Positions 3,665 to 40,137 of a DNA stretch of 40,137 nt are shown here, piece after piece (the stretch's first letter is position 1; each line of letters starts with the position of its first letter). The notes under the pieces are model-generated. The model saw nothing but the letters and a program-made list of their open reading frames with translations. It was not told the DNA's origin and did not search any database. Both the position numbers and the translations under genes were made by a program. Source of the DNA: Escherichia phage vB_Eco_Mak; sequence record OX001577; one strand, given 5' to 3'.

Positions 3665-4390
3665 ATGTTAGGTGGAGCACCATTTCAGATTGTACAACCT
3701 AAAGAGCCAGTGAAGTTCGGTGGATTAGGTCACGCTAATGTAGGCATAAAGTCATTACCTAAAGACCGTGGTGTATCATGGTCTGACTTCTATAAGGGTC
3801 GCTTAGGTCAGTCCTATGTTAGTCATGTGTACAAGAACTATAAGGTACATATTGAAGCTATTCGCAGATACATCATTCAGCTATCGCTCAGTAAGAACAG
3901 CTCAATCAAACCACTACGTGTAGTCGAAGCTGGTTGTGGTATCGGGTCTATCACACTGAACCTTGCTGATATGTCAGACCATAAGACAGTTATCTGCTCA
4001 GGCTTTGATGTGTCAGAAGGACAAGTTGTTAACTCTCGTGAGAACGCATTGCTTAACAATGTGGGTGACAGAGTGTCCTTTCATAAAGGTGACATCTTTA
4101 ATAGTGACGTATATAAAGATGCCCACATCATTCACTCTCATGGTGTCTTAGAACACTTCAGTGACGATGACATTATGAAAATCCTATTGACACAACTCAG
4201 TTCTCCTAACGTTCGGTATGTCATTCACTATGTACCACTGGAAGGATGGAAGACTCCCTCTTATGGTGATGAACGCCTGTTACCGCTGACACATTGGGTC
4301 AATGAGTTCGCTCCTACCCGTACCGTTGCGTTCAACGATGGTAAAGACGCTGTGCTAATCTGGGACGTTGAGTCTTTACTTCGCAATTAA
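3665..4390 (+). CDS. class I SAM-dependent methyltransferase (substrate unknown)
   Basis: 241-aa ORF with RBS AAGAGG 7 nt upstream. Contains a Rossmann-fold motif I (VVEAGCGIGSITLNL), an acidic residue after beta2 (GFDVSEG), and FHKGDIF / HSHGVLEHF motifs typical of small-molecule or RNA methyltransferases. Lies in an apparently AT-richer block preceded by two promoter copies. Confidence 0.75.
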   Translation: MLGGAPFQIVQPKEPVKFGGLGHANVGIKSLPKDRGVSWSDFYKGRLGQSYVSHVYKNYKVHIEAIRRYIIQLSLSKNSSIKPLRVVEAGCGIGSITLNLADMSDHKTVICSGFDVSEGQVVNSRENALLNNVGDRVSFHKGDIFNSDVYKDAHIIHSHGVLEHFSDDDIMKILLTQLSSPNVRYVIHYVPLEGWKTPSYGDERLLPLTHWVNEFAPTRTVAFNDGKDAVLIWDVESLLRN

Positions 4391-4408
4391 CACCCACTAT
4401 TGGAGAAC
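4385..4408 (+). promoter_or_regulatory. phage RNAP promoter
   Basis: AATTAACACCCACTATTGGAGAAC overlapping the methyltransferase stop, upstream of ligase. Confidence 0.7.
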
Positions 4409-4488
4409 ATCGTGTATGAACACTGCTGATATTCTCGCTATCAACTCTATGTTTCAATCCTTATACAAATCCATTGGAGGTAATTCAA

Positions 4489-5460
4489 ATGTTTACAATC
4501 AATCCGGCAAAGCCAGTAGCGTACAAAGAGTCAGCGATTCAGAAAGCTCTGGACAAGTCCGGTTCCCTAATCGCAGACCGCAAGTACGATGGAGTCCGTT
4601 GCCACATCGTGATTAAACCCACGGCTGACATCAATGGTCGTCCTGCTGCCCGTGCGTACTTCCTGAGTCGTACTAACAAGATGATTGCTGCCTTGCGTAG
4701 TGCTTGGTTGAGTAACGAGGAGCAGCTAGCCTTGGGTCAATTCCTGCAAGAGTCACGCTGGCCTGAAGGCATTGTGCTGGACGGGGAGGCGATGGTTAAA
4801 GGTATGGACTTCAATGCTTCTTCAGGTCGCCTGCGGTCAGACGCTCAGTTACCACTAAGTCAATTGACCTATGTGCTGTACGGTGTGTTGCCTGCTTCTG
4901 AGTTGGAAGCATCCGAGACTGCTGACTTGAGTCTGTCCAATGTGATGATTCAGGTTATCTCTCAAGTCACCATCCATCAGCTAAAGGAACTGCTGAAACC
5001 TATTGACTGGCAACTGGCTGAGTCATGGGACGTGTACGACATGGAGCAAATCAATGAGCTGTTTGAAGAACAGTTATCATTAGGCCGTGAAGGTCTGGTA
5101 CTTAAAGACCCTATGGCACCGTGGAAGCGCGGAAAGAAAACCGGATGGTGGAAGGTGAAGAACGAAGACACCATTGACGGTAATGTAGTTGGCGTAGTGT
5201 GGGGAACTGAAGGCAAGGCCAATGAAGGCAAAGTGATTGGCTTCGAGGTCTTACTAGAGAATGGCGTTGTGGTGAATGCCTGTGGTCTGACTCAAGACCA
5301 GATGGTTCGATTCACTAGCAACATCAAGCTGAACCCTGATTACTACAAAGATTGGGCTGTTCAGGTCAAGTTCATGGAACGTACACCTGATGGTTCACTG
5401 CGTCACCCTAGCTTTGACTGCTGGCGTGGCATGGCTGGACACGAAACGGAGAAAATGTAA
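4489..5460 (+). CDS. ATP-dependent DNA ligase (T7 gp1.3-like)
   Basis: Adenylation motif KYDGVRC, and LDGE..VKG..FN..SGRLRS, EGLVLKDP..WKRGKK.GWWKVK, EGKVIGFEVLLENG, TPDGSLRHPSF all match remembered T7 ligase. The T7 alignment starts at MFTINPAK (ATG 4489, GGAGG 8 nt upstream); the track ORF begins at TTG 4474. Confidence 0.9.
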   Translation: MFTINPAKPVAYKESAIQKALDKSGSLIADRKYDGVRCHIVIKPTADINGRPAARAYFLSRTNKMIAALRSAWLSNEEQLALGQFLQESRWPEGIVLDGEAMVKGMDFNASSGRLRSDAQLPLSQLTYVLYGVLPASELEASETADLSLSNVMIQVISQVTIHQLKELLKPIDWQLAESWDVYDMEQINELFEEQLSLGREGLVLKDPMAPWKRGKKTGWWKVKNEDTIDGNVVGVVWGTEGKANEGKVIGFEVLLENGVVVNACGLTQDQMVRFTSNIKLNPDYYKDWAVQVKFMERTPDGSLRHPSFDCWRGMAGHETEKM

Positions 5461-5526
5461 TGACTGTAGCTGTTATGTTCTGGGTTGTAGTCGGGCTGAG
5501 TATTGCAGCCTATGCGTCTTCCCATT

Positions 5527-5550
5527 AATTATCACCCACTATTGGAGAAC
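5527..5550 (+). promoter_or_regulatory. phage RNAP promoter-like element (variant)
   Basis: AATTATCACCCACTATTGGAGAAC (one mismatch). Confidence 0.5.
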
Positions 5551-5553
5551 ATC

Positions 5554-5670
5554 ATGGTTTATTTCCTATTGTTCACTGCTTGGTGCATCCTGTGGGTCTG
5601 CTCACGAGACGAACACCGTTGCAAATACTGTGGCGCTCCTTACTCTGAGTGCTTCTGTAAACATTCCTAA
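5554..5670 (+). CDS. possible 38-aa Cys-rich micro-protein
   Basis: Read by hand: ATG 5554 to TAA 5668..5670, MVYFLLFTAWCILWVCSRDEHRCKYCGAPYSECFCKHS. It sits behind the same promoter-leader arrangement (CTATTGGAGAACATC-ATG) as the kinase gene downstream. Below the track's size cutoff. Confidence 0.3.
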   Translation: MVYFLLFTAWCILWVCSRDEHRCKYCGAPYSECFCKHS

Positions 5671-5692
5671 TTAACCACCACTATTGGAGAAC
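5669..5692 (+). promoter_or_regulatory. phage RNAP promoter-like element (variant)
   Basis: AATTAACCACCACTATTGGAGAAC, 7 nt before the dNMP kinase ATG. Confidence 0.5.
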
Positions 5693-5698
5693 ATCATT

Positions 5699-6439
5699 AT
5701 GATTCATGTACATCTGCCAACAATCATTGGTATCTGCGCTCATGCACCACGTTCAGGTAAAGACACTCTGGCTGACTACATCGAGCGAGAAGCTGAGACC
5801 AAGGGTCTGCGCTATTTCCGTATTGCCTTCGGTGACTTGCTGCGTGAGGTAGTATCAACACTGTTCGGTATGAACTCTCGTGACTACGTTATGGCTGCTC
5901 TGCTGGGTTCCATGAAAGACGTAGCTCATGGTCGGTACAGTATCCGTAACCTAGAGAACGAATCCCTTAAAGAGTTCCTGATTGGAACCTTGGGATTAGA
6001 CCCAGACGAACCACGTTCCCCACGTTTCTATATGCAGCGTGTAGGCAACGACTACGTTAAGGGTCACTTAGGTCTTGAGAGCATGTGGGTTGACGCTGTG
6101 GGTACACAGATTACCACTCGCCTGTTGTACGGTAACGCTCCTGACTTGGTGATTATCACAGATGTCCGCTCACCTAATGAGTTCGACTATGTGACTGAAT
6201 GTGGGTTCTCGGTTGAAGTTAAGACTCAGGGCTTCCCTGCCTTGACTCACTCTGCTAAACCTGACACCTCTCACCCTGTAGAGAATCACCGCTTTGACTG
6301 TGACTTTGTGTTCACCAATGTGTATGGTGACATGCAGTCCCTTCAGTATCAGCTCCGTGAGTCTGGTCTGATTGATGCAGTCATTGAGCGTAACGAGATA
6401 TTGAAGCAACGTGTATTTGAACAGGAGGATTACCAGTGA
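5699..6439 (+). CDS. P-loop deoxynucleoside monophosphate kinase (T4 gp1-like)
   Basis: N-terminal P-loop APRSGKDTLADYI resembles T4 dNMP kinase (SGVKRSGKDTTADFI); ITDVRSPNEFDYV resembles T4 VPDTRQDHE. ATG 5699 follows promoter copy 5669..5692, whose GGAGAAC doubles as RBS. Track ORF starts at TTG 5684. Confidence 0.65.
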   Translation: MIHVHLPTIIGICAHAPRSGKDTLADYIEREAETKGLRYFRIAFGDLLREVVSTLFGMNSRDYVMAALLGSMKDVAHGRYSIRNLENESLKEFLIGTLGLDPDEPRSPRFYMQRVGNDYVKGHLGLESMWVDAVGTQITTRLLYGNAPDLVIITDVRSPNEFDYVTECGFSVEVKTQGFPALTHSAKPDTSHPVENHRFDCDFVFTNVYGDMQSLQYQLRESGLIDAVIERNEILKQRVFEQEDYQ

Positions 6440-6603
6440 AGCGATTCGTTATCCATCTTGAACGTGAAGGTTCCAATGAGGAAGAACGCACTGTTATCTT
6501 GGCGCGTGACCTAGACCATGCACTAGACAAAGCTCACTCTTTGTACGGTGAGGACGTGGTAACTCGTGTCCGTCCTGAATTAACACCCACTATTGGAAAC
6601 TAA
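6436..6603 (+). CDS. possible small protein (55 aa, GTG start)
   Basis: GTG 6436 overlaps the kinase stop (GTGA) and has a strong RBS (AGGAGG 6 nt upstream). Reads VKRFVIHLEREGSNEEERTVILARDLDHALDKAHSLYGEDVVTRVRPELTPTIGN. Its last codons are encoded by promoter copy 6578..6600. Not in the ORF track (under 60 aa). Confidence 0.4.
   Translation: MKRFVIHLEREGSNEEERTVILARDLDHALDKAHSLYGEDVVTRVRPELTPTIGN
6578..6600 (+). promoter_or_regulatory. phage RNAP promoter
   Basis: AATTAACACCCACTATTGGAAAC, followed by RNase III hairpin 6611..6656. Confidence 0.7.
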
Positions 6604-7177: not shown

Positions 7178-9074
<1,897 letters not shown>

Positions 9075-17442: not shown

Positions 17443-19047
17443 ATGGCTGAAGTTAAACGTGAAGGTCTAGCTGCTGAAGGTGCAGCCAAGACATATGAGC
17501 GTTTGAAGAATGACCGTAACGACTACGTGACCCGTGCAGAGGACTGTGCCAAGTACACCATTCCTAGTCTGTTCCCTAAGGATTCAGACGATGGTGGTAC
17601 GAGTTATACGACTCCTTGGCAGTCCATTGGTGCTCGCGGTCTGAACAACATTAGCGCAAAGGTAAACCTAGCGTTGTTCCCTGTAGGTGCGCCTTTCTTC
17701 AAACTGAATATCTCTGAGCTAGAGCTGAAGCAAATCATCACCGATTCGTCTGCACTTCAAGATGTAGCACAAGGTCTGTCGATGGTTGAGCGTATTGTTC
17801 TTAGCTACATGGAGGCCAACGGTTATCGAACTTCTCTGGTTGAAGCTATTCGTCAACTCTTTGTTAGCGGTAACGTGCTGCTGTACGTGACCAATCCTGA
17901 CGAGATGATGGATGGTGAAATGGCTGGTCTGAAGGTCTACCGATTGCCGTCCTATGTAGTTGAACGAGATGGATTCGATAACGTCTTGCAGATTGTAGCA
18001 GTCGATAAGATTGCCCGCGTAGCGTTACCTGAAGACATCCAATCTGCTATCGCTGAGGAGACTACCGATGAAAACCTGACAGAAGAAGTCGAGATTTACA
18101 CTCACATCTACCGTAACTCTGAGACACAAATGTTCACAGTTTATCAGGAGATTGAGGGTGAAATCGTAGCTGGCTCTGAAGGTGAGTACCCATTGGATGC
18201 TTGCCCTTGGATTCCTGTACGTCTTATCAAGATGCCTAACGAGGACTATGGACGTTCGTTCGTAGAAGAATACCTCGGTGACTTGAAGTCATTGGAGGCT
18301 CTGTACGAGGCTATGATTAAGATGTCCATGATTGCCGCTAAGGTTCTGTTCATGGTTAACCCTAACGGACAGACTCAGGTTCGCCGTATGGCTAAGGCCA
18401 ACACAGGTGACTTTGTAGCTGGTCGTAAGGAAGACATCGGAGTATTCCAGTTAGAGAAACAACAGGACTTCAACACAGCGAAGATTGTAGCTGACACCAT
18501 TGAGGCTCGCTTGTCGTATGCCTTCATGTTGAACTCTGCGGTACAACGCGGTGGTGACCGTGTTACTGCTGAGGAGATTCGCTATGTGGCTGGTGAATTG
18601 GAGGACACTCTGGGTGGTATCTATTCGTTACTGTCCCAAGAGTTACAGATGCCTTTAGTCCGCATCCTGTTGCGTGTACTGGAAGCTACCTCGAAGATTC
18701 CTAACTTGCCTAAGGAAGCTGTTGAACCTGCTGTTGCTACTGGTCTGGAAGCTCTGGGTCGTGGTCATGACCTTGACAAGCTGAATATGTTCGTTAACGG
18801 TATTGCTACTCTGTCTGCAATCCAAGACGAAGACCTGAACATGCGTGACATTAAGATGCGCTACGCTAACTCTCTGGGTATGGACACTGCTGGTATGATT
18901 CTGACTCCTGAGGAGAAACAACAGAAGATGGCTGAAATGGCTCAACAACAGGCCATGATGCAAGGTGGTGCCGCTGCGGGTGGCGTAATGGGTCAAGCTG
19001 GTGGTCAAGCAATGGCTGAACAAGCTGCTCAGATGATGCAACAATAA
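17443..19047 (+). CDS. portal / head-tail connector protein (T7 gp8-like)
   Basis: 534 aa, the size and position of T7 gp8, with a Gln/Ala/Met-rich C-terminal tail (MAEMAQQQAMMQGG...QMMQQ). Sits immediately before the scaffold and capsid genes. Confidence 0.9.
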   Translation: MAEVKREGLAAEGAAKTYERLKNDRNDYVTRAEDCAKYTIPSLFPKDSDDGGTSYTTPWQSIGARGLNNISAKVNLALFPVGAPFFKLNISELELKQIITDSSALQDVAQGLSMVERIVLSYMEANGYRTSLVEAIRQLFVSGNVLLYVTNPDEMMDGEMAGLKVYRLPSYVVERDGFDNVLQIVAVDKIARVALPEDIQSAIAEETTDENLTEEVEIYTHIYRNSETQMFTVYQEIEGEIVAGSEGEYPLDACPWIPVRLIKMPNEDYGRSFVEEYLGDLKSLEALYEAMIKMSMIAAKVLFMVNPNGQTQVRRMAKANTGDFVAGRKEDIGVFQLEKQQDFNTAKIVADTIEARLSYAFMLNSAVQRGGDRVTAEEIRYVAGELEDTLGGIYSLLSQELQMPLVRILLRVLEATSKIPNLPKEAVEPAVATGLEALGRGHDLDKLNMFVNGIATLSAIQDEDLNMRDIKMRYANSLGMDTAGMILTPEEKQQKMAEMAQQQAMMQGGAAAGGVMGQAGGQAMAEQAAQMMQQ

Positions 19048-20148: not shown

Positions 20149-21327
20149 ATGGCAGATATGCAACGTGCGCAACACATTGGTAAAGACCAAGGTAAAGGTG
20201 CTGTAGACGCAACAGGTCTGGCTCTGTTCCTGAAGGTCTATGGTGGTGAGGTTCTGACTGCGTTCGCACGTCAAGCTCAAACTCTGGACAAGGTTATGGT
20301 TCGTACCATCCAGAATGGTAAGTCCGCTCAGTTCCCTGTTATGGGTCGTACCAAAGCGTATTACCTGAAGGCTGGTAAGAATCTGGATGACCTGCGCGGT
20401 GAAATCAAGCACACCGAAAAGGTTATCTCCATTGATGGTCTGCTGACTACCGATGTTCTGATTTATGACATCGAAGATGCAATGAACCATTATGATGTCC
20501 GTTCAGAGTATTCCCGTCAGATGGGTGAAGCTCTGGCTATGGCTACTGATGCGGCTAACTACGGTGAGATTGCCAAGCTGGTTAACTCCCGTGCCACTGC
20601 CGCTAAGAACGAGAACATCGCCGGTCTGGGTAGCTCCTCTCTGATTATGATTGGTAAGGACATCGTTGATGCGGCTGACCCTGCCAAGATTGGTGAGGCT
20701 CTGATTCAAGCTCTGACCTACGCTCGTGCTGAGTTCACTAAGCGTTACATCCCTTCGGGTGACCGTTACTTTGCTACCTCTCCTGACAACTACTCTGCGA
20801 TTCTGTCTGCGATGATGCCTCATGCAGCGAACTATGCAGCTCTGATTGACCCTGAGACTGGTAATATCCGTAACGTGATGGGCTTCGAGGTGTACGAAAC
20901 CCCTCATATGGTCAAGATGTCCGACTTTGTGGATAACCCTGCTGATGCTCTGGCTGGTGACGGTCACGTATTCCCTACCACTGCTGCTGATGATAACTTC
21001 GCTGTGCCTACTGGTACTGCTGTTGTTAACGCCACTAACGTGATGGGTCTGTACTGGCACCGTTCTGCGGTAGCAACTCTGAAGCTGAAAGACATGGCTC
21101 TGGAACGTGCTCGCCGTCCTGAGTTCCAAGCTGACCAACTGATTGCTAAGTATGCAATGGGTCATGGTGGTCTGCGTCCTGAAGCTGCTGGTGCAATCAT
21201 CGTAACCAAAGACGCTGCTACTGGCGTGAAGGTGGACAAGCTGGCTGGTCACGATGGTGCTGCTGCTGCGGCTCTGTCTGCTGACGAAGGTACTGCTCGT
21301 ACTCGCCGTTCTGCAAAGTCTGAGTAA
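20149..21327 (+). CDS. major capsid protein (T7 gp10-like, long 10B-like form in one frame)
   Basis: Near-collinear with remembered T7 gp10A (ALFLKVYGGEVLTAFAR, GKSAQFPV.GRT, HTEKVISIDGLLT.DVLIYDIEDAMNHYDVRSEY, NYAALIDPE.G.IRNVMGFEV, RSAV.T.KL.D.ALERARR..FQADQ.IAKYAMGHGGLRPEAAGA). Continues about 40 aa further, with an Ala-rich tail. Confidence 0.95.
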   Translation: MADMQRAQHIGKDQGKGAVDATGLALFLKVYGGEVLTAFARQAQTLDKVMVRTIQNGKSAQFPVMGRTKAYYLKAGKNLDDLRGEIKHTEKVISIDGLLTTDVLIYDIEDAMNHYDVRSEYSRQMGEALAMATDAANYGEIAKLVNSRATAAKNENIAGLGSSSLIMIGKDIVDAADPAKIGEALIQALTYARAEFTKRYIPSGDRYFATSPDNYSAILSAMMPHAANYAALIDPETGNIRNVMGFEVYETPHMVKMSDFVDNPADALAGDGHVFPTTAADDNFAVPTGTAVVNATNVMGLYWHRSAVATLKLKDMALERARRPEFQADQLIAKYAMGHGGLRPEAAGAIIVTKDAATGVKVDKLAGHDGAAAAALSADEGTARTRRSAKSE

Positions 21328-21349
21328 TTCCATTAACATCTGACATAAA

Positions 21350-21380
21350 GGGGAGGCCATTAGGTCTTCCCTTTTTTTTT
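21350..21380 (+). terminator. rho-independent terminator after the major capsid gene (T7 T-phi analogue)
   Basis: GGGGAGGCC-ATTA-GGTCTTCCC (9-bp stem with two G-U pairs) followed by nine T residues, 23 nt after the capsid stop. Confidence 0.75.
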
Positions 21381-21398
21381 CGCTAAGGAGGCTACTTT

Positions 21399-21995
21399 AT
21401 GTTCCAAGCTAACCCATATGAAACCAATTGGGCATACCAAGCGGAACTGGAAGCTGTTAACGAAATCTTGGCTGCGATTGGTGAATCACCTGTGAACACC
21501 CTTGAGGGTGACGCTAACACAGACGTAGTGAACGCCCGAAACATGCTGCAACAGGTCAATCGTACCGAGCAGGCACGAGGGTGGACATTCAACATCGAAG
21601 AAGGTTACATCTTGAACCCAGACATCTTCTCTGGTCTTATTCCGTACCTTCCGAATTACCTGAGTGTCACTACAACGGGTGGTACACCTTATGTCAACCG
21701 AGGTGGTTACATCTATGACCGCTTCAATAAGACTGACCGTTTTGATGCTCCAATTGAGGTAAACATGATTGTCTTGAAGACATTCGATGAAATGCCTGAG
21801 CCATTCAAACGTTACGTTATCACTAAGGCTGCTCAACGCTTTAACATTCGGTTCTTTGGTGACCCTAATATTGACACCTCTCTGGGGAACGAGTTGATTG
21901 ACCTTGAGCGTACAGTCAATGAGTTCGAGCTGGACTATGGTGCATTCAATATGTTCAACCAAGACCCGTTCGTATCACAAGCTATCAGCCGTTAA
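21399..21995 (+). CDS. tail tubular protein A (T7 gp11-like)
   Basis: 198-aa ORF (T7 gp11 is 196 aa) directly after the capsid terminator and before tail tubular B. RBS AAGGAGG. Confidence 0.85.
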   Translation: MFQANPYETNWAYQAELEAVNEILAAIGESPVNTLEGDANTDVVNARNMLQQVNRTEQARGWTFNIEEGYILNPDIFSGLIPYLPNYLSVTTTGGTPYVNRGGYIYDRFNKTDRFDAPIEVNMIVLKTFDEMPEPFKRYVITKAAQRFNIRFFGDPNIDTSLGNELIDLERTVNEFELDYGAFNMFNQDPFVSQAISR

Positions 21996-22009
21996 TAAGG
22001 AGGCTAACG

Positions 22010-24400
22010 ATGGGACTTGTCTCACAATCAATCAAGAACCTGAAGGGTGGTATCAGTCAACAACCTGACATCCTTCGGTTTGCAGACCAAGGGGAGAAGC
22101 AAGTCAATGCGTTCTCCTCAGAGGTTGAGGGTCTACAGAAACGACCTCCAAGCACTCACGTCAACCGATTGGCAGACCACGGTGCTCTCAGTGAGAAACC
22201 TTATTGTCACGTAATCAACCGTGATGAACAAGAGAAGTACGTTCTGTTCTTCGGGAACAACACTGTGTACGCATACAATCTATTGACAGGTTTGTATGTT
22301 CCAGTGAACTTCCCTAGTGGTGCTTCTTACATTGCCACTGCGAACCCGCGTAAAGACTTACGAATGGTTACCGTAGCGGACTTCACCTTTATCATCAACC
22401 GTAATGTGGTAGTACAGGAAGGTTCCACTCGGACACCGATGCACTACCAACAAGGTAAACATGGTCTTGTATATTGCCGTGGTGGCCAATATGCTCGTAC
22501 CTATCAGATTATTCTGAATGGTGCAGTGCAGGCTACCTATACGGCTCCACTAGGTGACCAAGTAGCCCATGCCAAAGAGATTGACACTCAGTTTATCTTG
22601 ACTAAGCTGGCAGAGAACTTCAACGCTAACCTAAGCCAACACGGATGGTCAGCGTCAGTTCAGGATGGTTACCTGTGGATTCAAGCAGGTGGAAACACTA
22701 TCACTTCCCTGAAGGTAGTGGACGGCTTCAACGGGCAACTGTTGGATTGTATAACTTATTCAGCACAGAAGACCGTAGACCTTCCGGTTACAGCTCCCGA
22801 TAAATACCAAGTGTTAATCTCAGGAGATGCAGCTCAAGGTCAGGATGACTTCTGGGTTCAGTATGATGGTCAACGCCGTGTATGGACTGAAATCCCTGCA
22901 CCTAACATCATTGCTGACCTGAACAAGAATACCATGCCTTGGGTGATGATTCGTGAGGCAGACGGTAACTTTACCCTACGTCCTACCGATTGGTCTACCC
23001 GTGGTAGTGGTGACGATGACACTAACCCGATGCCTTCCTTTGTGGGTCAGACAATCAACGATGTGTTCTTCTTCCGTAACCGTTTAGGTTTTCTGAGCGG
23101 TGAGAACGTTGTGATGTCTGAGGCAGGGTCATACTTCAACTTCTTCCCTCGGTCTGTTGCTGTGACTTCTGATAGTGACCCTATTGACGTTGCTGTATCA
23201 ACTAACCGGATTAGTATCTTGAAGTACGCTGTGCCATTCTCTGAGGAACTGCTATTATGGTCTGACCAAAGCCAGTTCGTAATGACTGCCGATGGTATTC
23301 TGACTCCTACGTCTGTCCGCTTGGATATGACCACTGAGTTCGAGGTGACCGATAGTGCTCGCCCTTACGGTATTGGCCGTGGTGTTTACTTCATTGCACC
23401 TCGCGCTAAGTTCTCCTCAGTGCGGCGTTACTATGCTGTGCAGGACGTTACTCAGGTGAAGAACGCTGAGGACGTTACAGCTCACGTACCGAGTTACATC
23501 CCTAATGGTGTACACAAAGTCACCGGTAGTTCCATTGAGAACTTGCTTACCGTGTTGACCGAGGGTGCTCCACATAAGGTGTTCCTTTACAAGTTCCTGT
23601 ACTTGGAAGAACAGATTGCCCAGCAGTCTTGGTCTGAGTGGGACTTTGGGGAAGGTTCTCGTGTACTGTGCTGTGACATGATGGGAGCTATTATGCACCT
23701 CGTGATTGATGCCCCTTCTGGTATCTACATGGAACGCATTGAGTTCACTCAGAACACTAAGGACTATCCTAACGAACCGTACCGTTTGTATATGGACAGA
23801 AAGATTCGTTACACCATCCCTAGTGGCGCATACAACGATGACAACTTTGAGACTACTATCTACTTGCAGAACGTGTATGGTGCTAAGCCTCAGTACGGTA
23901 AGTATTTCGTAGTGTTAGAATCTGGTGTCGTGTATGAGTTCGACCCGCCTGATGGTGGTTGGGCTGCGTCAGATGGTGGTCTTCGCATCAACGGAAACCT
24001 TGAAGGTTACAACGTGTTCATCGGTGAGCAGTACACCATGCTGTATCAGTTCTCCAAGTTCCTTATTAAGTCTGTTGATACTAATGGTGGTACAACTACT
24101 GAGGACATCGGTCGCTTACAATTGCGCCGCGCTTGGGTTAACTACGACAAGTCAGGCGACTTCCGTATCCAAGTTGAGAATCAAGGTCGAGTGTTCACGT
24201 ACAACATGACAGGTCGCCGCTTAGGGACTAAACAACTGGTACTTGGTGAGCAGAACCTAGATACAGGACAATTTAAGTACCCTGTGTCAGGTAACGCCAA
24301 GGTGGTTAACATTACGTTGCTATCCGATGCCCCAAGCCCTGTTGCTATCATTGGTGGTGGATGGGAAGGTAACTACATCAGACGTTCATCTGGTATTTAA
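22010..24400 (+). CDS. tail tubular protein B (T7 gp12-like)
   Basis: 796-aa ORF (T7 gp12 is 794 aa) in the conserved position. RBS AAGGAGG. Confidence 0.9.
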   Translation: MGLVSQSIKNLKGGISQQPDILRFADQGEKQVNAFSSEVEGLQKRPPSTHVNRLADHGALSEKPYCHVINRDEQEKYVLFFGNNTVYAYNLLTGLYVPVNFPSGASYIATANPRKDLRMVTVADFTFIINRNVVVQEGSTRTPMHYQQGKHGLVYCRGGQYARTYQIILNGAVQATYTAPLGDQVAHAKEIDTQFILTKLAENFNANLSQHGWSASVQDGYLWIQAGGNTITSLKVVDGFNGQLLDCITYSAQKTVDLPVTAPDKYQVLISGDAAQGQDDFWVQYDGQRRVWTEIPAPNIIADLNKNTMPWVMIREADGNFTLRPTDWSTRGSGDDDTNPMPSFVGQTINDVFFFRNRLGFLSGENVVMSEAGSYFNFFPRSVAVTSDSDPIDVAVSTNRISILKYAVPFSEELLLWSDQSQFVMTADGILTPTSVRLDMTTEFEVTDSARPYGIGRGVYFIAPRAKFSSVRRYYAVQDVTQVKNAEDVTAHVPSYIPNGVHKVTGSSIENLLTVLTEGAPHKVFLYKFLYLEEQIAQQSWSEWDFGEGSRVLCCDMMGAIMHLVIDAPSGIYMERIEFTQNTKDYPNEPYRLYMDRKIRYTIPSGAYNDDNFETTIYLQNVYGAKPQYGKYFVVLESGVVYEFDPPDGGWAASDGGLRINGNLEGYNVFIGEQYTMLYQFSKFLIKSVDTNGGTTTEDIGRLQLRRAWVNYDKSGDFRIQVENQGRVFTYNMTGRRLGTKQLVLGEQNLDTGQFKYPVSGNAKVVNITLLSDAPSPVAIIGGGWEGNYIRRSSGI

Positions 24401-24418
24401 CACCCACTATTGGAGACA
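24395..24418 (+). promoter_or_regulatory. phage RNAP promoter (before deoxynucleoside kinase)
   Basis: ATTTAACACCCACTATTGGAGACA overlapping the tail tubular B stop. Confidence 0.7.
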
Positions 24419-24433
24419 TAACACCCACAACCT

Positions 24434-24464
24434 GAGGGTCACTATATTTAGTGGCTCTCTTTTA
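24434..24464 (+). terminator. stable hairpin with U-tract between the promoter and the kinase gene (terminator or attenuator candidate)
   Basis: GAGGGTCACT-ATATTT-AGTGGCTCTC (10-bp stem with G-U pairs) followed by TTTTA. Confidence 0.35.
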
Positions 24465-24477
24465 TGGAGGAATTTTA

Positions 24478-25107
24478 ATGAGAATTGTAGTTATTGAAGC
24501 TAACATTGGTGCAGGTAAATCCACTTTGTTACAACCTCTTGTGGATGAACTTCAGCTATGGTCTGGTGAAGATTGGGACTTAGTGATTGAACCAGTAGAC
24601 CAAGACCCTGAGTTCCACCGTCTGTTGAAAGAAATGATTGCCGATATGTCTAACCCAGACAAGCGTATTCGTTTCCAGATGTACCTGACCGAGCAGCGTC
24701 AACAACTGTTAAAGAACTTACCTGATGGAAACTATGTCGTTGAACGCTCTCTGTTCAGTGACCTTGTGTTCTCCCAGATGTATTTCTTAACGACTGAGAA
24801 ACCTTCTGCCGAGTACATGAATTATTACTACAACATCAAGGAACGTCTGAAAGACTACCCTCAGATTGATTGTGTCGTGTACTTAGACCGTGACCCTGCG
24901 TCTTGCCATGAGTCCATCATCAAGCGTGGTCGTGAAGGTGAGCACTATGAGATGCACTATCTGGAAGACCTAAAGCGTTTCCACGATGCGTGTCTACCTC
25001 AGATTGCTCGTGAGTATAACACTAAGCTAATCACTGTGGACTTAGGTAAGACCTATGCTCTGCCTTCTGTGATTGCTGCTGATGTAATGGAGCACTTATA
25101 TGGCTAA
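24478..25107 (+). CDS. deoxynucleoside kinase (dCK/dGK/TK2 family)
   Basis: P-loop IEANIGAGKSTL, ERS motif (VVERSLFSD) and a DRDP...C....IIKRGREGE lid motif characteristic of deoxyribonucleoside kinases. ATG 24478 has GGAGG 7 nt upstream; track ORF begins at GTG 24451. Confidence 0.7.
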   Translation: MRIVVIEANIGAGKSTLLQPLVDELQLWSGEDWDLVIEPVDQDPEFHRLLKEMIADMSNPDKRIRFQMYLTEQRQQLLKNLPDGNYVVERSLFSDLVFSQMYFLTTEKPSAEYMNYYYNIKERLKDYPQIDCVVYLDRDPASCHESIIKRGREGEHYEMHYLEDLKRFHDACLPQIAREYNTKLITVDLGKTYALPSVIAADVMEHLYG

Positions 25108-25597
25108 TGAAATGAAACCTATGTTTACTAAAGTCAAAGCTACTCTGGAACATGCAGACCGCTTGTCTCAGAATTTGTCCATTGAGGACTGCAACGAACT
25201 GGTAGCCAGCGGGTCTTTACGTGAAGACTATGAACTGCGTGATGTTCGTAATCTGCTTCGCACTTGTGTTCAATTCGGTGGTGATGTTTATACCATCTTA
25301 GACCAATATCAAGTACCTATCATGATTGGTGGGGTAGCTGAAGATATGGGCTACTTTGGTGCTGGCACAGTGTGGATGCTGACCAGTAAGACTGCTTCAA
25401 TGCGTCCAGCCACTCAACGTGCAGAACTTCTGTTAATGTTGTCAGACCATCTGAACCTGTGCTTGCAGAAGTACGTTAAGCTGCACAATGTGATGTGGAA
25501 GAAGAACACTGGTCATTATCGCTTCTTGTATAACCTTGGTGCTAAGTTCCGAGAGATTCCAGATAAGCCTGACTTCCTGTACTTCAGCTTTGAATAA
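25100..25597 (+). CDS. hypothetical protein (either T7 gp13 position or part of the inserted kinase module)
   Basis: 165-aa ORF whose ATG overlaps the kinase stop by 8 nt (translationally coupled). No motifs recognised. Confidence 0.5.
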   Translation: MANEMKPMFTKVKATLEHADRLSQNLSIEDCNELVASGSLREDYELRDVRNLLRTCVQFGGDVYTILDQYQVPIMIGGVAEDMGYFGAGTVWMLTSKTASMRPATQRAELLLMLSDHLNLCLQKYVKLHNVMWKKNTGHYRFLYNLGAKFREIPDKPDFLYFSFE

Positions 25598-25608
25598 GGA
25601 GGTGCAAT

Positions 25609-26178
25609 ATGTGTGACCCCGCGTCAATCACAATGGCTACAATCGGGGTGGGAAGCTCTCTGATTGATGCCAAGAATCAGAACAAAGCGTATGCTGCTGG
25701 TGAGTTAGCAAGACGTAAACAACTCATGCAGATGGTACGTCAGGCCAACACTCAGGATGCGAACCTTCAGTTACAAGACAAGTCTAACTTCGAGGCTGCT
25801 ATCCAAGAGCTTGAGAAGGCAACGATGGACTCTGTGAAAGCACAGGGTACTGTCCAGACTGCTATGGCTGAAAGTAACCTTGAGGGTCGCTCTATGGAAC
25901 GTACAAAACGTGATGTAGAGAATGTCTACCTGCGTACCAAGGGCATGATTAACGAGAACTATGAGCGTGATTATGCAAACATCTATGCTCAACGTGTCTC
26001 TAACCGTGATAACCTGATTGCTGCCATCGAGGGTATGCCTCCACTTCAGCGTCCTGACCCACTGTCCCAAGGACTCAATGTGGTCACTGCTGGTGTACAA
26101 GGTGCTATTGTTGGTAGTAACATCTGGGGAACTTACAAGAAGACTCCTCAGTTCGGAAATACAGGAGTAACTAAATGA
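25609..26178 (+). CDS. internal virion protein B (T7 gp14-like)
   Basis: Starts MC..A.I, then LQLQDKS, LEGRSMERTKR, ENYERDYANIYAQ, paralleling remembered T7 gp14 (MCWAAAIPIA..., LEGSSMDRIKR, ENYRRDYQAIFAQ). RBS AAGGAGG. Confidence 0.8.
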   Translation: MCDPASITMATIGVGSSLIDAKNQNKAYAAGELARRKQLMQMVRQANTQDANLQLQDKSNFEAAIQELEKATMDSVKAQGTVQTAMAESNLEGRSMERTKRDVENVYLRTKGMINENYERDYANIYAQRVSNRDNLIAAIEGMPPLQRPDPLSQGLNVVTAGVQGAIVGSNIWGTYKKTPQFGNTGVTK

Positions 26179-28253
26179 GTAAACTTCAACAGGCTTTAGC
26201 CTCAGTTAAAGCTCCCACTGTTTCCATCAAAGGTGTACAAGGTGCAACGTTCACTGCCCAAAATGTGCAAGCACAGCAAACCAATCAGACCAACTACTCA
26301 GGTCAGTTGTTAGGCATTGCACAGCTAGGGTCACAACTCTATGCAGACTATGTAGACCGTAGAGAGAAACAAGGGAAAGAAAGAGCTGCGGAAATCCTGA
26401 TGAAGAAGATGCAGCCTGAACAGATTCGTGAACTACGACAGTCAGGCGCTCTGCTCTATCAAGATGACCCGTACGCCATGCGTGCTCTTGAACGTGAATT
26501 AGGTCGTCAGGAGGCATACAACGTTGACGCTATGGTTCGTGAACGTATTGCCAATGGCGACTACCCAACTCGTGCAGCAATGGAACAAGACCGTAGTGAT
26601 ATGATGGAGTCTGCCCGTGATGGTATGGCTCAGACTTACGGTATTGAACCAACGTCAGAGTATTTCCGTGAGGGTATGCAAGCTGATATTGTTGAGCGCA
26701 ATATGGCTATCTATGATGCTCAAGCACGTAAGCAAGACCAACGTCACCGCAACGAAGCCCGTGTAGTCATTGAGTCTAACTTAGGTTCACTGGTCAATTC
26801 GGGCAATGGTGGTCACGTTCTGTCTTACCTTCAGGACATGAAGAACAAAGGTGTTATCCGCAATGATGCTGAGTTTGAAACTTATGCTATCAAAGCGGTG
26901 AAAGACCTGTCTCAACGTCCTAACAGCATTGACCAAGTTCGTGCCATTATGGACTCGGACATTCCGCTGTACGGAGGTAAGACAACCTTACGTGCCCGTC
27001 TTGGTGAAGAAATGTTCCGTAACTTCGAGAACTCCGCTGCTGAGTCTACATTGCGTAACAATCAAGAGACGCAACGGTGGTTCACCCAGACGTTAAACTA
27101 TGTGGCTAACCCAGACCTGACACAAGATGGTGCTGAGTTACAAGCATACGATAACCTTGCGAAGTTAGAACAATTTGCTAACCAGACACAAGGTACTGAA
27201 CAAGCGACTGCTGTACGACAACAAATTGAGCAGGCTAAGATTCAGCTTGAGAATAAACTCCGAGCTAAGAACCAAGCCAAGCAGAAAGAGTTAGCTAAAC
27301 AGCAACAGCAATACGTTCGGTTAGCTGCGATTGATGAACGTGTGGAAGGTCGTCTAAGTGGTGACAATCAGTTATCCCTGAAGTTGGATAGCTTTGAGTC
27401 AAATGAAACCACTGGTGAATACACTAAGAATGACCTCAACGCTTACTATCGCATGAAGATGGACGAGATTAAGAACGACCCTCAAATGTCTCAGGAACAG
27501 AAGGCACTCAAGGTGTTGAACATCGGGGCACTACTGAAGGATGAAGACAAAGCGGGATTTAGCGCCCACTTTGGGGAGATGATTAACTCGGCCACTCAGG
27601 AACTCAACAAGTACGGTGTCGCCTTAGATGCTGGCGCTGAGTTACCTCCGACTCCTACCTTGGATTCCATGATGGAGTTGTATAAAGCTGATAAGCAGAA
27701 GTTTGTCAGTGTGTTCGGTTCAGAGTCGTCTTTGATTACTGACCTAGCGGCAGGTGCTACACTTGGTGTTCACCCTGCACGTATCGCACAAGGTCGTATC
27801 GTCTTGGATAAGATGCCTAAGGATGCTCGAATGGCTATGTCATTAGAGTTCCAGAACATGATGTCTAAGACTGATGACATCTATAACTCGCTGCCTGATA
27901 CTCAGAAGGAAAGCCTACAAGCTGCCTATGTGGGTATGTCTGGCTTGTCTAATGCAGACCGAGTGAAGGTACTGAACGAACACCTGAAAGACCAATATCA
28001 ATCACTGACTGACCGTGGATGGTTTAACACTGGTCATGTACGTGGAGTAGTCCCTAAGACTTTCCTTATGGGCGACCCTACCAATCCATCTTCTGTGGAT
28101 GTCGGTAAGGCTAAACTTCAGAAGTACATTACCACTGAGTTCGGTGATAACGGCCTGACAAGCGTCTCTGCTGTTGGTGATACCCTCCTGTTGTGGAATA
28201 CCCTGCGTAATACGCCTCGGTATCTGACCAAGGAGGAGTTGATGAAGTATTAA
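26175..28253 (+). CDS. internal virion protein C (T7 gp15-like)
   Basis: 692-aa ORF (T7 gp15 is 747 aa) between the gp14-like and gp16-like genes; start overlaps the gp14 stop (ATGA). Confidence 0.8.
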   Translation: MSKLQQALASVKAPTVSIKGVQGATFTAQNVQAQQTNQTNYSGQLLGIAQLGSQLYADYVDRREKQGKERAAEILMKKMQPEQIRELRQSGALLYQDDPYAMRALERELGRQEAYNVDAMVRERIANGDYPTRAAMEQDRSDMMESARDGMAQTYGIEPTSEYFREGMQADIVERNMAIYDAQARKQDQRHRNEARVVIESNLGSLVNSGNGGHVLSYLQDMKNKGVIRNDAEFETYAIKAVKDLSQRPNSIDQVRAIMDSDIPLYGGKTTLRARLGEEMFRNFENSAAESTLRNNQETQRWFTQTLNYVANPDLTQDGAELQAYDNLAKLEQFANQTQGTEQATAVRQQIEQAKIQLENKLRAKNQAKQKELAKQQQQYVRLAAIDERVEGRLSGDNQLSLKLDSFESNETTGEYTKNDLNAYYRMKMDEIKNDPQMSQEQKALKVLNIGALLKDEDKAGFSAHFGEMINSATQELNKYGVALDAGAELPPTPTLDSMMELYKADKQKFVSVFGSESSLITDLAAGATLGVHPARIAQGRIVLDKMPKDARMAMSLEFQNMMSKTDDIYNSLPDTQKESLQAAYVGMSGLSNADRVKVLNEHLKDQYQSLTDRGWFNTGHVRGVVPKTFLMGDPTNPSSVDVGKAKLQKYITTEFGDNGLTSVSAVGDTLLLWNTLRNTPRYLTKEELMKY

Positions 28254-31200: not shown

Positions 31201-32601
31201 CTGACCCGATTGATTACTGGCCGCCGTAGAGCTGAAGACCCTGCGTCTGCCTTGGTGACTGCAATTCGTGGTCTGCAAGATTGGTCGTTCCTGTCTAACT
31301 CTGCGCAGATGTGGGTGAACAACCTAACTGAAGTATCAGGGTGGGCAACTAACCGGATGATGTTTGTGGCTCGTAATGGTGTCAAAGGTCTGAACCAACT
31401 GTTGAACCCAGAAACGAAGTTCTCTAAGGCTGACCTGAAGGACTTTGCTGATGGTCTGTTCGGCTATGACCTGAACACTTCGTTGTTACCTTCCTACCGG
31501 AACATCAAAGACCAACTGATTAAGACAGGTGCTAGCGAACGTGCTGCTTCAATCGCTGCTGGTATTCGTACAAGTGGTGCATTGGCTGCAAGTCATAAGT
31601 ACAACATCTACACTAAGCTGTTGAACAAGACTACTGAAGGTCTGGTCAATATGGCACGTAGTGGTGTACTGAGTGACATCACACACGAAGCATTCGGTGG
31701 TGTGCGTATCAATAAGGCTATCTTGAGGAATGCCTCAATCACTGAGAAACAGTATGCAGGTGTCTTGGATATGTTACGTCAGCACATCAAAGTGCAAGAC
31801 GGTAAGTATGTCCCTGATGTGCAGGCCATTAAGCGTGACGTTAGGTCTAATGACCTGTGGCGCTTAGCGGACTACATTGCGTCTGACTCTGTGATGCGAA
31901 CAAACAAGGTGGGCTTCAACTATGTGGCTAAACCTAATGCCTTTATGAACCTTGCGTTGCAGTTCAAGTCCTTCATGTTGAAGGGTCTGAATGCTCGCAC
32001 TGTTCGTATGTGGCATGAGTCATTCCAAGGTAAGTCTATTGACAACGCTATGCGAGTTATCGTTGGTGCTGGTATCACTGGTGCTATCTGGGCTGCACAG
32101 GCTCACTACCGTTCTATTGGTATTCCACCTGAGCAACGCCAAGAGTACCTTGAGCGTATGTTAGACCCTAGCATGGTAGCTTATCAGGCATTCTCACGTA
32201 GTGCTGAGATGGGTACTGTACTTGGTGGTGTAAACCTCGCGTTGACTCCATTCACAGACAGTGACCTGTTCCGTTTAGGTCGTTCTACCGTAGACCCTGT
32301 ACGGGCTATGAAAGGACGCTCACCTTTACGTGCAGACGTTCTGAATCAACAAGCTGTCGGTGAACAACTTGGTGACGCTGTGTACAACACAATGCCAGCC
32401 TTGAAGTTCATTGGTACTGCTGGTGTCCTTCCGGCTAACGCTGTGCAATGGGCACTTGCCGACCACGGCTATCAGTCTGACATGCAGGCTCGTACCTTCT
32501 TTGAGAACTTAGCGTCTGCTGCTCCTAATGCTCCTGAGATTCAGTGGTTAATCGGGATGATGGCACAAGATGCAGGTGCTTCAGGTAAGGGTATGTGGTA
32601 A
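28276..32601 (+). CDS. internal virion protein D with N-terminal lytic transglycosylase domain (T7 gp16-like)
   Basis: 1441 aa. N-terminal SLT-like motifs (GMIESGLKADASSGVAKGLFQFTKTTWDA, AYL) parallel the remembered T7 gp16 N-terminus (AWTESRF...GPLGMMQFTKAT). Internal matches include DLVRSPTG, GIENN.F...RN.FD, DLR.FDM, NGDIAIH.STGKTTK.LKD, QFKSF..K.LN, EYLERMLDP.M.A. Confidence 0.9.
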   Translation: MSYSTDTSSTSMYQRLKALSGDTHGLITTAGNELGLPEGQALKVGMIESGLKADASSGVAKGLFQFTKTTWDAMKQKYGAEYGIDPTASRTDPVANTILGVAYLKENATNYQSTFGKDPELVDLYMGHFLGQSGRNQFLKAMEQNPNAPAYAVVGKRSVANNKDVFFKKDGTARTLNEVYQMYSNKLSATELEQDMKTDRLKMDIQDELLWKTLGRSQDGSANATLSTGTAPSTPNFDVSLSDSKPQSIADALSSYGLQKPEDTVEKDERSFFDGAWEAAKAEIRLSPIGRDLREKYIQSGAPVEWDSAAAALRESFSGLSQSEMFTGNINPLEPMDITPEMWNTILSNGVDKKWMEYIKMSANPQDLVNRVQMAQEMQRADQARQAAATGGQLVGGIAGAFGDPLTFATGGTSAGGSLMTRLFVAGTEAAAGNAANEFSLSQETRGGVETNIAAAALGGFAGGVALRGLGEAFTNMSAAGRMRARQESIDAGVPDVTARPDVEVPEGKTWVEKPDEAGAVVDELGNTHSATSFGNPKVMEAVEANKGIELGGLNSISYDLLRSESTETRTIAQDLVRSPTGIKGGGSGVTRMTAEDYLGRLEGQDNLIYTQAMKAREKAYEHSMFDLQGGRNAREAMERQVVEAIESGDFSRLTPEMKEYADLLTTNFTEKHYAASNIAALSGNADAPNVLTSTIDPKRYVPAIYEEGKVIDAKMRFDPEGKYEGLYNEIQANWTAQWKNNHNGVRERMKALFDEDNSKFAEDLRAKLTKDKELDVVPEGKQKSARMEKQEGIQAKISKAEELRQKNAVKLQKARKPETRAKYEGLVQKYDKQLSELKTELEMTKPMDEDKLLEIYAQRYIERKSYGIAKNGEFTHSSSLEDVDLSDSLVGIENNNFTQERNIFDMAYESIAKDGEPFSLNDLRHFDMMNAMSMYNKRMNGDIAIHASTGKTTKDLKDAIVALPEGRDRTNLDQLTRLITGRRRAEDPASALVTAIRGLQDWSFLSNSAQMWVNNLTEVSGWATNRMMFVARNGVKGLNQLLNPETKFSKADLKDFADGLFGYDLNTSLLPSYRNIKDQLIKTGASERAASIAAGIRTSGALAASHKYNIYTKLLNKTTEGLVNMARSGVLSDITHEAFGGVRINKAILRNASITEKQYAGVLDMLRQHIKVQDGKYVPDVQAIKRDVRSNDLWRLADYIASDSVMRTNKVGFNYVAKPNAFMNLALQFKSFMLKGLNARTVRMWHESFQGKSIDNAMRVIVGAGITGAIWAAQAHYRSIGIPPEQRQEYLERMLDPSMVAYQAFSRSAEMGTVLGGVNLALTPFTDSDLFRLGRSTVDPVRAMKGRSPLRADVLNQQAVGEQLGDAVYNTMPALKFIGTAGVLPANAVQWALADHGYQSDMQARTFFENLASAAPNAPEIQWLIGMMAQDAGASGKGMW

Positions 32602-40010: not shown

Positions 40011-40137
40011 GATAATCAAGCAACACTGCTGGTCTTGTTGTACTACGCAACTGCAAATGTAGTCGGGACGATGAAACTGCTATCCCTAAAGTTCTTTAAC
40101 AATCTGGTATAAAGCGCATGTGTTGAGTTAGAAAGTG
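40011..40137. repeat. exact duplicate of window positions 1..127 (probable assembly wrap-around of a circularly permuted sequence)
   Basis: Positions 40011..40137 are identical to 1..127 by direct comparison. The duplication lies between the gp0.6-like gene and the RNAP gene, not where T7-type terminal repeats reside. Confidence 0.8.

Follow-up and report, generated by a model that had tools for sequence, protein, structure and literature searches.

Why a T7-like phage would carry a deoxynucleoside kinase gene among the genes for its virion proteins is the question raised by a locus in the DNA of Escherichia phage vB_Eco_Mak (sequence record OX001577; 40,137 nucleotides (nt), one strand, analysed as a whole and referred to below as the window). 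An earlier, sequence-only reading noted at this locus a 209-amino-acid (aa) open reading frame (ORF) with the P-loop, ERS and lid motifs of deoxynucleoside kinases of the dCK/dGK/TK2 type, located, along with a promoter of its own and a strong hairpin, between the tail tubular protein B gene and the internal virion protein genes; all the elements that it described are present at, or a few bases from, the positions where it placed them. Sequence comparison and structure modelling suggest that this ORF is likely to encode an active, ATP-dependent deoxynucleoside kinase of the non-TK1 type, a salvage enzyme expressed late in infection, the gene for which would go back to a single acquisition in the ancestor of a clade of T7-like phages. 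The gene in question is:

24478..25107, + strand: deoxynucleoside kinase gene, 209 aa (assigned from PF01712, PDB matches, the AlphaFold2 model with a Foldseek search, and invariant catalytic residues)

Family, predicted fold and catalytic residues

A Pfam search started with the 209-aa protein identifies PF01712 with a score of 75.1 bits (gathering cut-off (GA) 27; E = 8.5e-21), the alignment pairing residues 5-178 with positions 2-172 of the 203 positions of the profile. Sequence matches in the PDB are to human dCK, insect multisubstrate deoxynucleoside kinases (Dm-dNK), the Mycoplasma mycoides deoxyadenosine kinase (Mm-dAK) and human dGK, with the best E-value of 3e-7 for a single-sequence phmmer search and 2.7e-18 for a 27-sequence profile. 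An AlphaFold2 model built on the alignment of homologs (mean pLDDT 91.9, pTM 0.87) has the alpha/beta fold of the dNK type. The top 50 PDB matches of this model in a Foldseek search are all deoxynucleoside kinases (best E = 3.3e-10; TM 0.64-0.78), including Giardia dAK, dCK, dGK, Mm-dAK and Dm-dNK. The sequence-only reading had suggested a Pfam profile search, with the deoxynucleoside kinase family as the expected result, and a structure prediction followed by a structure search; the former yields a match far over the cut-off, the latter returns the dNK family exclusively, and profile, motifs and predicted fold agree on the assignment to the dCK/dGK/TK2 type. By sequence and by modelled structure, then, the phage protein is a member of the dCK/dGK/dNK (non-TK1) family.

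The gene has been annotated before, under conflicting names. It is called “putative deoxyribonucleoside kinase” in the GenBank records of phages N4, ICP3 and vB_Eco_Bam (OW991346; Autographiviridae, Studiervirinae), the last of which, along with its near-twin vB_Eco_Titus, is 100% identical to positions 21000-28000 of the window in a megablast search. The same gene is labelled “thymidylate kinase” in the RefSeq records of N4, VP4 and ICP3, “deoxyguanosine/deoxyadenosine kinase(I) subunit 2” in VP3, “hypothetical protein” in Rostov-1 and, erroneously, “proton/sodium-glutamate symport protein” in the Vibrio phages of the JSF series. Under the RefSeq label, which is also that of PHROG 761, the protein would be a nucleotide kinase, phosphorylating deoxynucleoside monophosphates (dNMPs) or thymidylate, and not a nucleoside kinase. 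The match to PHROG 761 is indeed strong (E = 5.9e-34), the RefSeq labels of N4, VP4 and ICP3 concur, and there are weak matches to PF02223 (20.2 bits) and TIGR00041 (23.7 bits). However, both these scores are below the cut-offs of the respective models (27 and 83.25), whereas PF01712 is well over its own; no thymidylate kinase is found among the Foldseek PDB top 50; the E-P-V, FQ and ERS motifs are invariant; and a separate, putative dNMP kinase is already encoded by the phage. Thymidylate kinase identity was accordingly rejected on the profile scores and the structure matches, and a nucleotide kinase of any kind is a very improbable reading of this gene. The PHROG 761 label appears to have been propagated into the RefSeq records of N4, VP4 and ICP3. 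The present analysis supports the GenBank name and argues against both “thymidylate kinase” and “proton/sodium-glutamate symport protein”.

Conservation was assessed in an alignment of 29 sequences, the query and 28 homologs with 50-86% identity. All 29 sequences share E7, G13, K14, E38-P39-V40, F66-Q67, R74, E89-R90, R150, R152 and E155, and S91 and D95 are found in 90% or more of them. The P-loop, (G/A)xxxxGK(S/T), is represented by A8-N-I-G-A-G13-K14-S15, with a glycine at the first position in some homologs. The E-P-V motif aligns with EPV of dCK, dNK and Mm-dAK; F66-Q67 and ERS align with FQTY and ERS of dCK; and in the lid, K149-R150-G151-R152-E153-G154-E155, the residues R150, R152 and E155 align with R192, R194 and E197 of dCK. 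The P-loop, the ERS motif and the KRGREGE lid of the sequence-only reading are, therefore, both present and conserved across homologs.

The roles of the invariant residues are known from work on dCK and Dm-dNK: these are the P-loop, the glutamate that deprotonates the 5'-OH (E53 in dCK, E52 in Dm-dNK), the base-binding glutamine (Q97 in dCK), the arginine of ERS (R128) and the lid arginines (R192 and R194). Nucleoside kinases are set apart from nucleoside monophosphate (NMP) kinases by the Glu-Pro-Val base, FQ and ERS, and because the phage protein has all three, it is predicted to be an active deoxynucleoside kinase. By homology to dCK, Dm-dNK and Mm-dAK, G13, K14 and S15 of the P-loop would hold the ATP phosphates; Glu38 of E-P-V would deprotonate the 5'-OH of the deoxynucleoside; Arg90 of ERS, R150 and R152 of the lid and E155 would stabilise the phosphate in transfer; and the base would be read by Gln67, Arg74 and Asp95.

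The last two of these residues bear on specificity. An Arg/Asp pair (R104/D133 in dCK) touches the base in dCK, dGK and bacterial deoxyadenosine kinases, and the corresponding positions of Dm-dNK are occupied by Met88 and Ala110. An ungapped alignment with Mm-dAK places R74 on the arginine and D95 on the aspartate; in an ungapped alignment with the dNK-type chain 6ybh, R74 falls on methionine and D95 on alanine. In the AlphaFold2 model, residues 60-79 form an unbroken helix, and because this helix is continuous, the ungapped register (Q+7) was taken as correct for R74. We infer the equivalence of R74 from the helical register together with the ungapped alignments with Mm-dAK and dNK. Given that R74/D95 corresponds to the pair of the dCK and Mycoplasma dAK type and not to Met/Ala of Dm-dNK, the predicted substrates are deoxyadenosine (dA), deoxyguanosine (dG) and deoxycytidine (dC) rather than thymidine (dT).

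Among the characterised enzymes, human dCK (1p5z, 2a2z) is the best sequence match in the PDB. The P-loop, EPV, FQxY, ERSxxSD and RGRxEE of the two proteins align, although identity is only about 24% and the phage kinase lacks the insert around S74 and the N-terminal extension of dCK. Mm-dAK (PDB 2jaq/2jas) and bacterial dAK/dGK resemble the phage kinase in size (about 205-210 aa), align without gaps through the substrate helix and superimpose with a TM of about 0.7; Mm-dAK also shares EPV(D/E)xxP(E/Y)F, Q67, the R74/D95 pair and the KRGR..E lid. It differs in that identity is about 22-24%, that its DRT motif is replaced by ERS in the phage kinase, and that the activity of the phage protein is a prediction.

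The gp12/gp13 junction: expression and history

Around the kinase gene, where the window coordinate equals the Bam GenBank v2 coordinate + 80, the following features were identified:

22010..24400, + strand: gp12 (tail tubular protein B, or nozzle), the upstream neighbour (Pfam PF25675 Phage_nozzle, 1116 bits; PHROG 457)
24395..24417, + strand: phage RNA-polymerase promoter, the phi13 equivalent (-17 to +6, predicted start G 24412; sequence ATTTAACACCCACTATTGGAGAC)
24434..24465, + strand: RNA hairpin in the 5' leader (stem-loop 24434..24459, then UUUUAU; terminator Bam_Term02 of the Bam GenBank record)
24466..24470, + strand: Shine-Dalgarno sequence GGAGG, 7 nt 5' of the kinase ATG, from direct reading of the sequence
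25100..25597, + strand: gp13-like internal virion protein A (PF11090 Phage_T7_Gp13, E = 3.4e-10; PHROG 308)

The kinase ORF extends from ATG 24478 to TAA 25105-25107, and its product begins with MRIVVIEANIGAGKSTL. Both the coding sequence (CDS) in the Bam GenBank record and a mechanical list of ORFs start at a GTG codon at 24451, within the leader hairpin and 27 nt 5' of the ATG, for a product of 218 aa. Since the starts of all 28 homologs in the alignment coincide with the ATG, a length of 209 aa is supported, in agreement with the ORF of the sequence-only reading, which is preceded by GGAGG and ends at 25107. On this comparison of sequences, the kinase start in the Bam record is 27 nt too far upstream and ATG 24478 is correct. 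At the other end, the kinase stop codon and the gp13 ATG overlap by 8 nt (ATGGCTAA), which suggests translational coupling of the two genes.

The promoter, within which the stop codon of gp12 falls, matches the consensus AATTAACACCCACTATTGGAGAA at 21 of 23 positions. The consensus was built from 16 copies of the 13-nt core ACCCACTATTGGA with at most two mismatches, all on the + strand of the window (0.88 copies expected by chance), and the initiating G 24412 was placed by alignment with the T7 consensus. Late-region copies of the promoter, at 19046, 20023, 24395, 32600 and 38831, mirror phi9, phi10, phi13, phi17 and phiOR of T7, where phi13 is located at 27274, between the end of gene 12 (27226) and the start of gene 13 (27307). 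A scan of the window for the core detects no copy between the kinase gene and gp16, the next one after 24395 being at 32600; hence the promoter at 24395 would serve dNK, gp13, gp14, gp15 and gp16 together. A conserved promoter is also seen at the kinase locus in an alignment with PT2, T7-Ah and ICP3, and is annotated “phiPorf42” in ICP3. Thus, of the claim that the kinase has its own promoter, the promoter sequence at 24395 stands, whereas its being private to the kinase does not, with T7 phi13 at the same junction and the next copy only at 32600. Judging by sequence position, this is the phi13 equivalent of the whole late block and not a cassette imported with the kinase. As T7 phi13 occupies the same gene 12/13 junction, the kinase gene would have entered between a pre-existing phi13-type promoter and gene 13. 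The kinase would then be the first cistron of a late (class III) transcript that starts from 24395..24417 and runs through gp13-gp16, so that the enzyme would be made during bulk DNA synthesis, its translation probably coupled to that of gp13.

The strong hairpin of the sequence-only reading is also borne out: the stem-loop at 24434..24459, with an 11-base-pair stem (including two G-U pairs) and a 4-nt UAUU loop, has a predicted energy of -18.6 kcal/mol (z = -3.9; one of 200 shuffles folds as well), and a pattern scan calls it terminator-like. PT2, T7-Ah and ICP3 have a hairpin at the same position, unrelated in sequence to that of the window, so that in the Bam/PT2/T7-Ah/ICP3 alignment the presence of the hairpin is kept and its sequence is not; a conserved leader RNA element was rejected on these grounds. 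The hairpin may act in termination, as an RNase III site or as a stabiliser. The RNA of the gene 12/13 junction in T7 (27234-27280) also folds into a hairpin (-25.5 kcal/mol, z = -7.3), the 3' arm of which is the phi13 promoter. This is probably the RNase III site R13, which is not annotated in the RefSeq record.

A tblastn search of the kinase against 50,697 phage records identifies homologs in 44 of these. Bam and Titus account for two of the records, Aeromonas T7-like phages with 72-77% identity (PZL-Ah8, PZL-Ah152, T7-Ah, PT2, JELG-KS1, phiA014S and others) for eight, and Vibrio cholerae T7-like phages with 67-69% identity (ICP3 isolates, N4, VP3, VP4, the JSF series and Rostov) for about 29. 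In about 37 Vibrio and Aeromonas T7-like records, i.e., in Chatterjeevirus (ICP3 orf42, N4, VP3, VP4, JSF) and the Aeromonas phages, the same gene, with 67-77% aa identity, occupies the same gp12/gp13 locus; the window phage differs from these in its host, E. coli, and in the sequence of the leader hairpin. The two matching records of the Bam group likewise carry the gene at this locus. In the three relatives examined, ICP3, T7-Ah and PT2, gp12 and gp13 flank the kinase gene, which shares 8 nt with gp13 and is preceded by a promoter overlapping the end of gene 12. In a published comparison, the Aeromonas phages, the Bam/Titus/Mak group and Chatterjeevirus are mutual nearest relatives (PMC10974468).

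The sequence-only reading had stated that in T7 gene 12 is followed directly by gene 13, and this holds for T7, Ebrios and the Pseudomonas Warsawvirus phTUNSv, none of which has a gene between the two. Its synteny argument is upheld in part: the gene is extra by comparison with these three phages, but it is not a novelty, given that about 37 Vibrio and Aeromonas records share the locus. The kinase gene has a GC content of 0.441 (0.442 for gp13), and its codon usage is indistinguishable from that of the adjacent genes. A recent horizontal insertion into Bam was rejected because composition and codon usage resemble those of the neighbours and the locus is kept in these records; for the same reasons, the insertion is best viewed as ancestral to the clade. 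The likely history is a single acquisition in the ancestor of the clade made up of Chatterjeevirus, Aeromonas T7-Ah and Bam-Titus, followed by retention. The kinase is, in short, an already annotated, clade-conserved accessory gene, for which the present analysis corrects the start codon and indicates a place in a phi13-type late operon.

Predicted place in nucleotide metabolism

The sequence-only reading had also pointed to a second kinase in this phage, for dNMPs, and proposed two successive phosphorylation steps, from deoxynucleoside (dN) to dNMP to deoxynucleoside diphosphate (dNDP). The features concerned are:

5669..5691, + strand: copy of the phage promoter directly 5' of the dNMP kinase gene (21 of 23 consensus positions)
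5699..6439, + strand: candidate T4-gp1-like dNMP kinase, the putative second step of the pathway (PHROG 139, E = 4.1e-30; P-loop APRSGKDT)

The second kinase is a candidate on the strength of the PHROG 139 match, although the score of 26.4 bits against Pfam DNMK (PF21448) falls just short of the cut-off of 27.1; a PDB sequence search finds no match at E <= 1. The gene, a “hypothetical protein” in the Bam GenBank record, follows the ligase gene, roughly at the position of gene 1.7 in T7, the product of which is an unrelated nucleotide kinase. T7 gp1.7 and T4 gp1 are likewise phage-encoded steps toward the synthesis of deoxynucleoside triphosphates (dNTPs), but they act on dNMPs and not on nucleosides as the late kinase is predicted to do. 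JELG-KS1 likewise has an annotated dNMP kinase gene following that of the DNA ligase, and an analog of it is presumed to exist in T7-Ah and Titus (PMC10974468).

Homologs of the deoxynucleoside kinase outside the T7-like clade provide further context. In seven more distant phage matches, the gene resides within DNA-metabolism modules, which supports a role in nucleotide metabolism. The homolog of Aeromonas phage 1233, 54% identical to that of Bam, is located immediately 3' of a dNMP kinase gene (4058-5621 of the extracted locus), and this gene pair lends independent genomic support to the two kinases acting as a pathway. In the two-step scheme of the sequence-only reading, then, both putative kinases are encoded and the adjacency in phage 1233 fits, whereas the activity of the pathway is a prediction from sequence. 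A different pairing is observed in the Colwellvirinae phages HJG (Aeromonas; 3991-5618) and 15E36.1 (Vibrio; 4246-5606), where the homolog abuts or overlaps a gene for a metallophosphatase (“PP2A-like”), near exonuclease and ligase genes and within a DNA-metabolism module.

Chromosomal homologs with 50-58% identity are present in Kluyvera, Leclercia, Pantoea, Mixta, Yokenella, Enterovibrio and one Salmonella strain. The Kluyvera, Leclercia, Pantoea, Mixta, Yokenella and Enterovibrio proteins have the same length as the phage kinase and share all its catalytic residues, but are encoded by stand-alone chromosomal genes. The two loci inspected, in Kluyvera intermedia (8001-8630) and a Salmonella Choleraesuis strain (8001-8633), are stand-alone genes in ordinary chromosomal surroundings, and for these two a prophage origin was rejected. 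A blastn search of 5,426 complete E. coli genomes gave no match to either the gene of the phage or that of Kluyvera.

These contexts also bear on whether the protein is an enzyme at all. The dNK fold can be retained without catalysis, as in NDUFA10, an inactive subunit of complex I, and this inactive relative is detectable with the phage kinase profile (E ~1e-11). A non-enzymatic or virion-associated protein of this fold, recruited to assemble with gp13, or packaged into the particle and ejected along with the internal virion proteins, would fit the location of the gene within the virion block and its 8-nt overlap with gp13. The catalytic residues, however, are all invariant and common to the free-standing chromosomal homologs of Enterobacterales, the homologs in other phages belong to DNA-metabolism modules, and a search for virion proteomics evidence for the protein found none; a structural role is, accordingly, hardly credible.

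The interpretation we favour is that of a salvage enzyme. The kinase would capture deoxynucleosides that E. coli cannot phosphorylate and that would otherwise be catabolised, and the resulting dNMPs would be handed to the T4-gp1-like dNMP kinase (5699..6439) and then to DNA synthesis. E. coli has no deoxyadenosine kinase (review, PMC6540614) and would for this reason be unable to rescue these deoxynucleosides. The clade of T7-like phages would thus add a nucleoside-level salvage step that is absent from enterobacterial hosts such as E. coli and pair it with a dNMP kinase. In infected Gram-negative cells, the phage enzyme could also increase the sensitivity to nucleoside analogues, e.g., gemcitabine, as in the analogous case of E. 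coli carrying Gram-positive deoxyadenosine kinases (PMC6540614).

The same activity could serve a different purpose, namely counter-defence. The kinase would re-phosphorylate deoxynucleosides released by host dNTP triphosphohydrolases (Dgt or SAMHD1-like dGTPases), which convert dNTP to dN and triphosphate (PPPi), or by further defences that deplete nucleotides. In concert with the dNMP kinase it would replenish the dNTP pools and take over the function of gp1.2, the dGTPase inhibitor of T7, with the class III placement ensuring high expression during bulk DNA synthesis. T7 itself encodes both gp1.2 and the nucleotide kinase gp1.7, and tblastn detects no homolog of either in the window (best E = 0.057 and 0.12, respectively). 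The Arg/Asp pair that bears on specificity would be consistent with purine substrates, dG among them, and E. coli has no enzyme of this family for re-phosphorylation. Yet the failure to detect gp1.2 by sequence is a weak argument, considering that such small inhibitors diverge fast; a kinase racing an activated dNTPase would amount to an ATP-burning futile cycle; the single PADLOC match is spurious (15 bits, to a methyltransferase model); and the literature search found no link of deoxynucleoside kinases to dGTPase defence in phages. On balance, we regard counter-defence as unlikely. Should the kinase act on dG or dA and matter on dNTP-depleting hosts, it would exemplify a new counter-defence principle.

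Several considerations weigh against the kinase being an active salvage enzyme with the predicted specificity. Breakdown of host DNA of the T7 type yields dNMPs, not nucleosides, which leaves the substrates without an evident source. The virion block is an unusual place for a metabolic gene, and efficient termination at the leader hairpin, if it occurs, could keep expression of the kinase low. At the position of R188, the first arginine of the dCK lid, the phage kinase has Ser146, and the RxxxRxRxxE signature is only partly complete. The HMMER alignment with human dCK, which includes a two-residue gap, puts R74 on R106 and not on R104. Finally, a literature search gave no enzyme assay for the phage kinase or its close homologs, and the substrate range is deduced from two residues; in full-text articles, the search found no functional study of the gene, only descriptive mentions (PMC10974468).

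Other features of the window

Positions 1-127 and 40011-40137 of the window are exact repeats of each other, 127 base pairs (bp) in length. The Bam GenBank record OW991346.2 lacks this end repeat; instead, close to the end of its portal gene, 127 bp are exactly duplicated in tandem (18735-18988), and the annotation there divides the “head to tail joining protein” between two CDSs. A length of 127 bp is the typical overlap for an assembler run with k = 127. At least one of the two, the end repeat or the portal duplication, is probably an artefact of assembly, and the end repeat of the window may not be the true terminal repeat.

A weak match to gp2, the inhibitor of host RNA polymerase, was detected at positions 6421-6588 of the window (E = 0.012). 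Directly 3' of the major capsid gene, at 21347-21384, there is a Tphi-like terminator with a 12-bp GC-rich stem followed by nine T residues, at the position equivalent to that of Tphi in T7.

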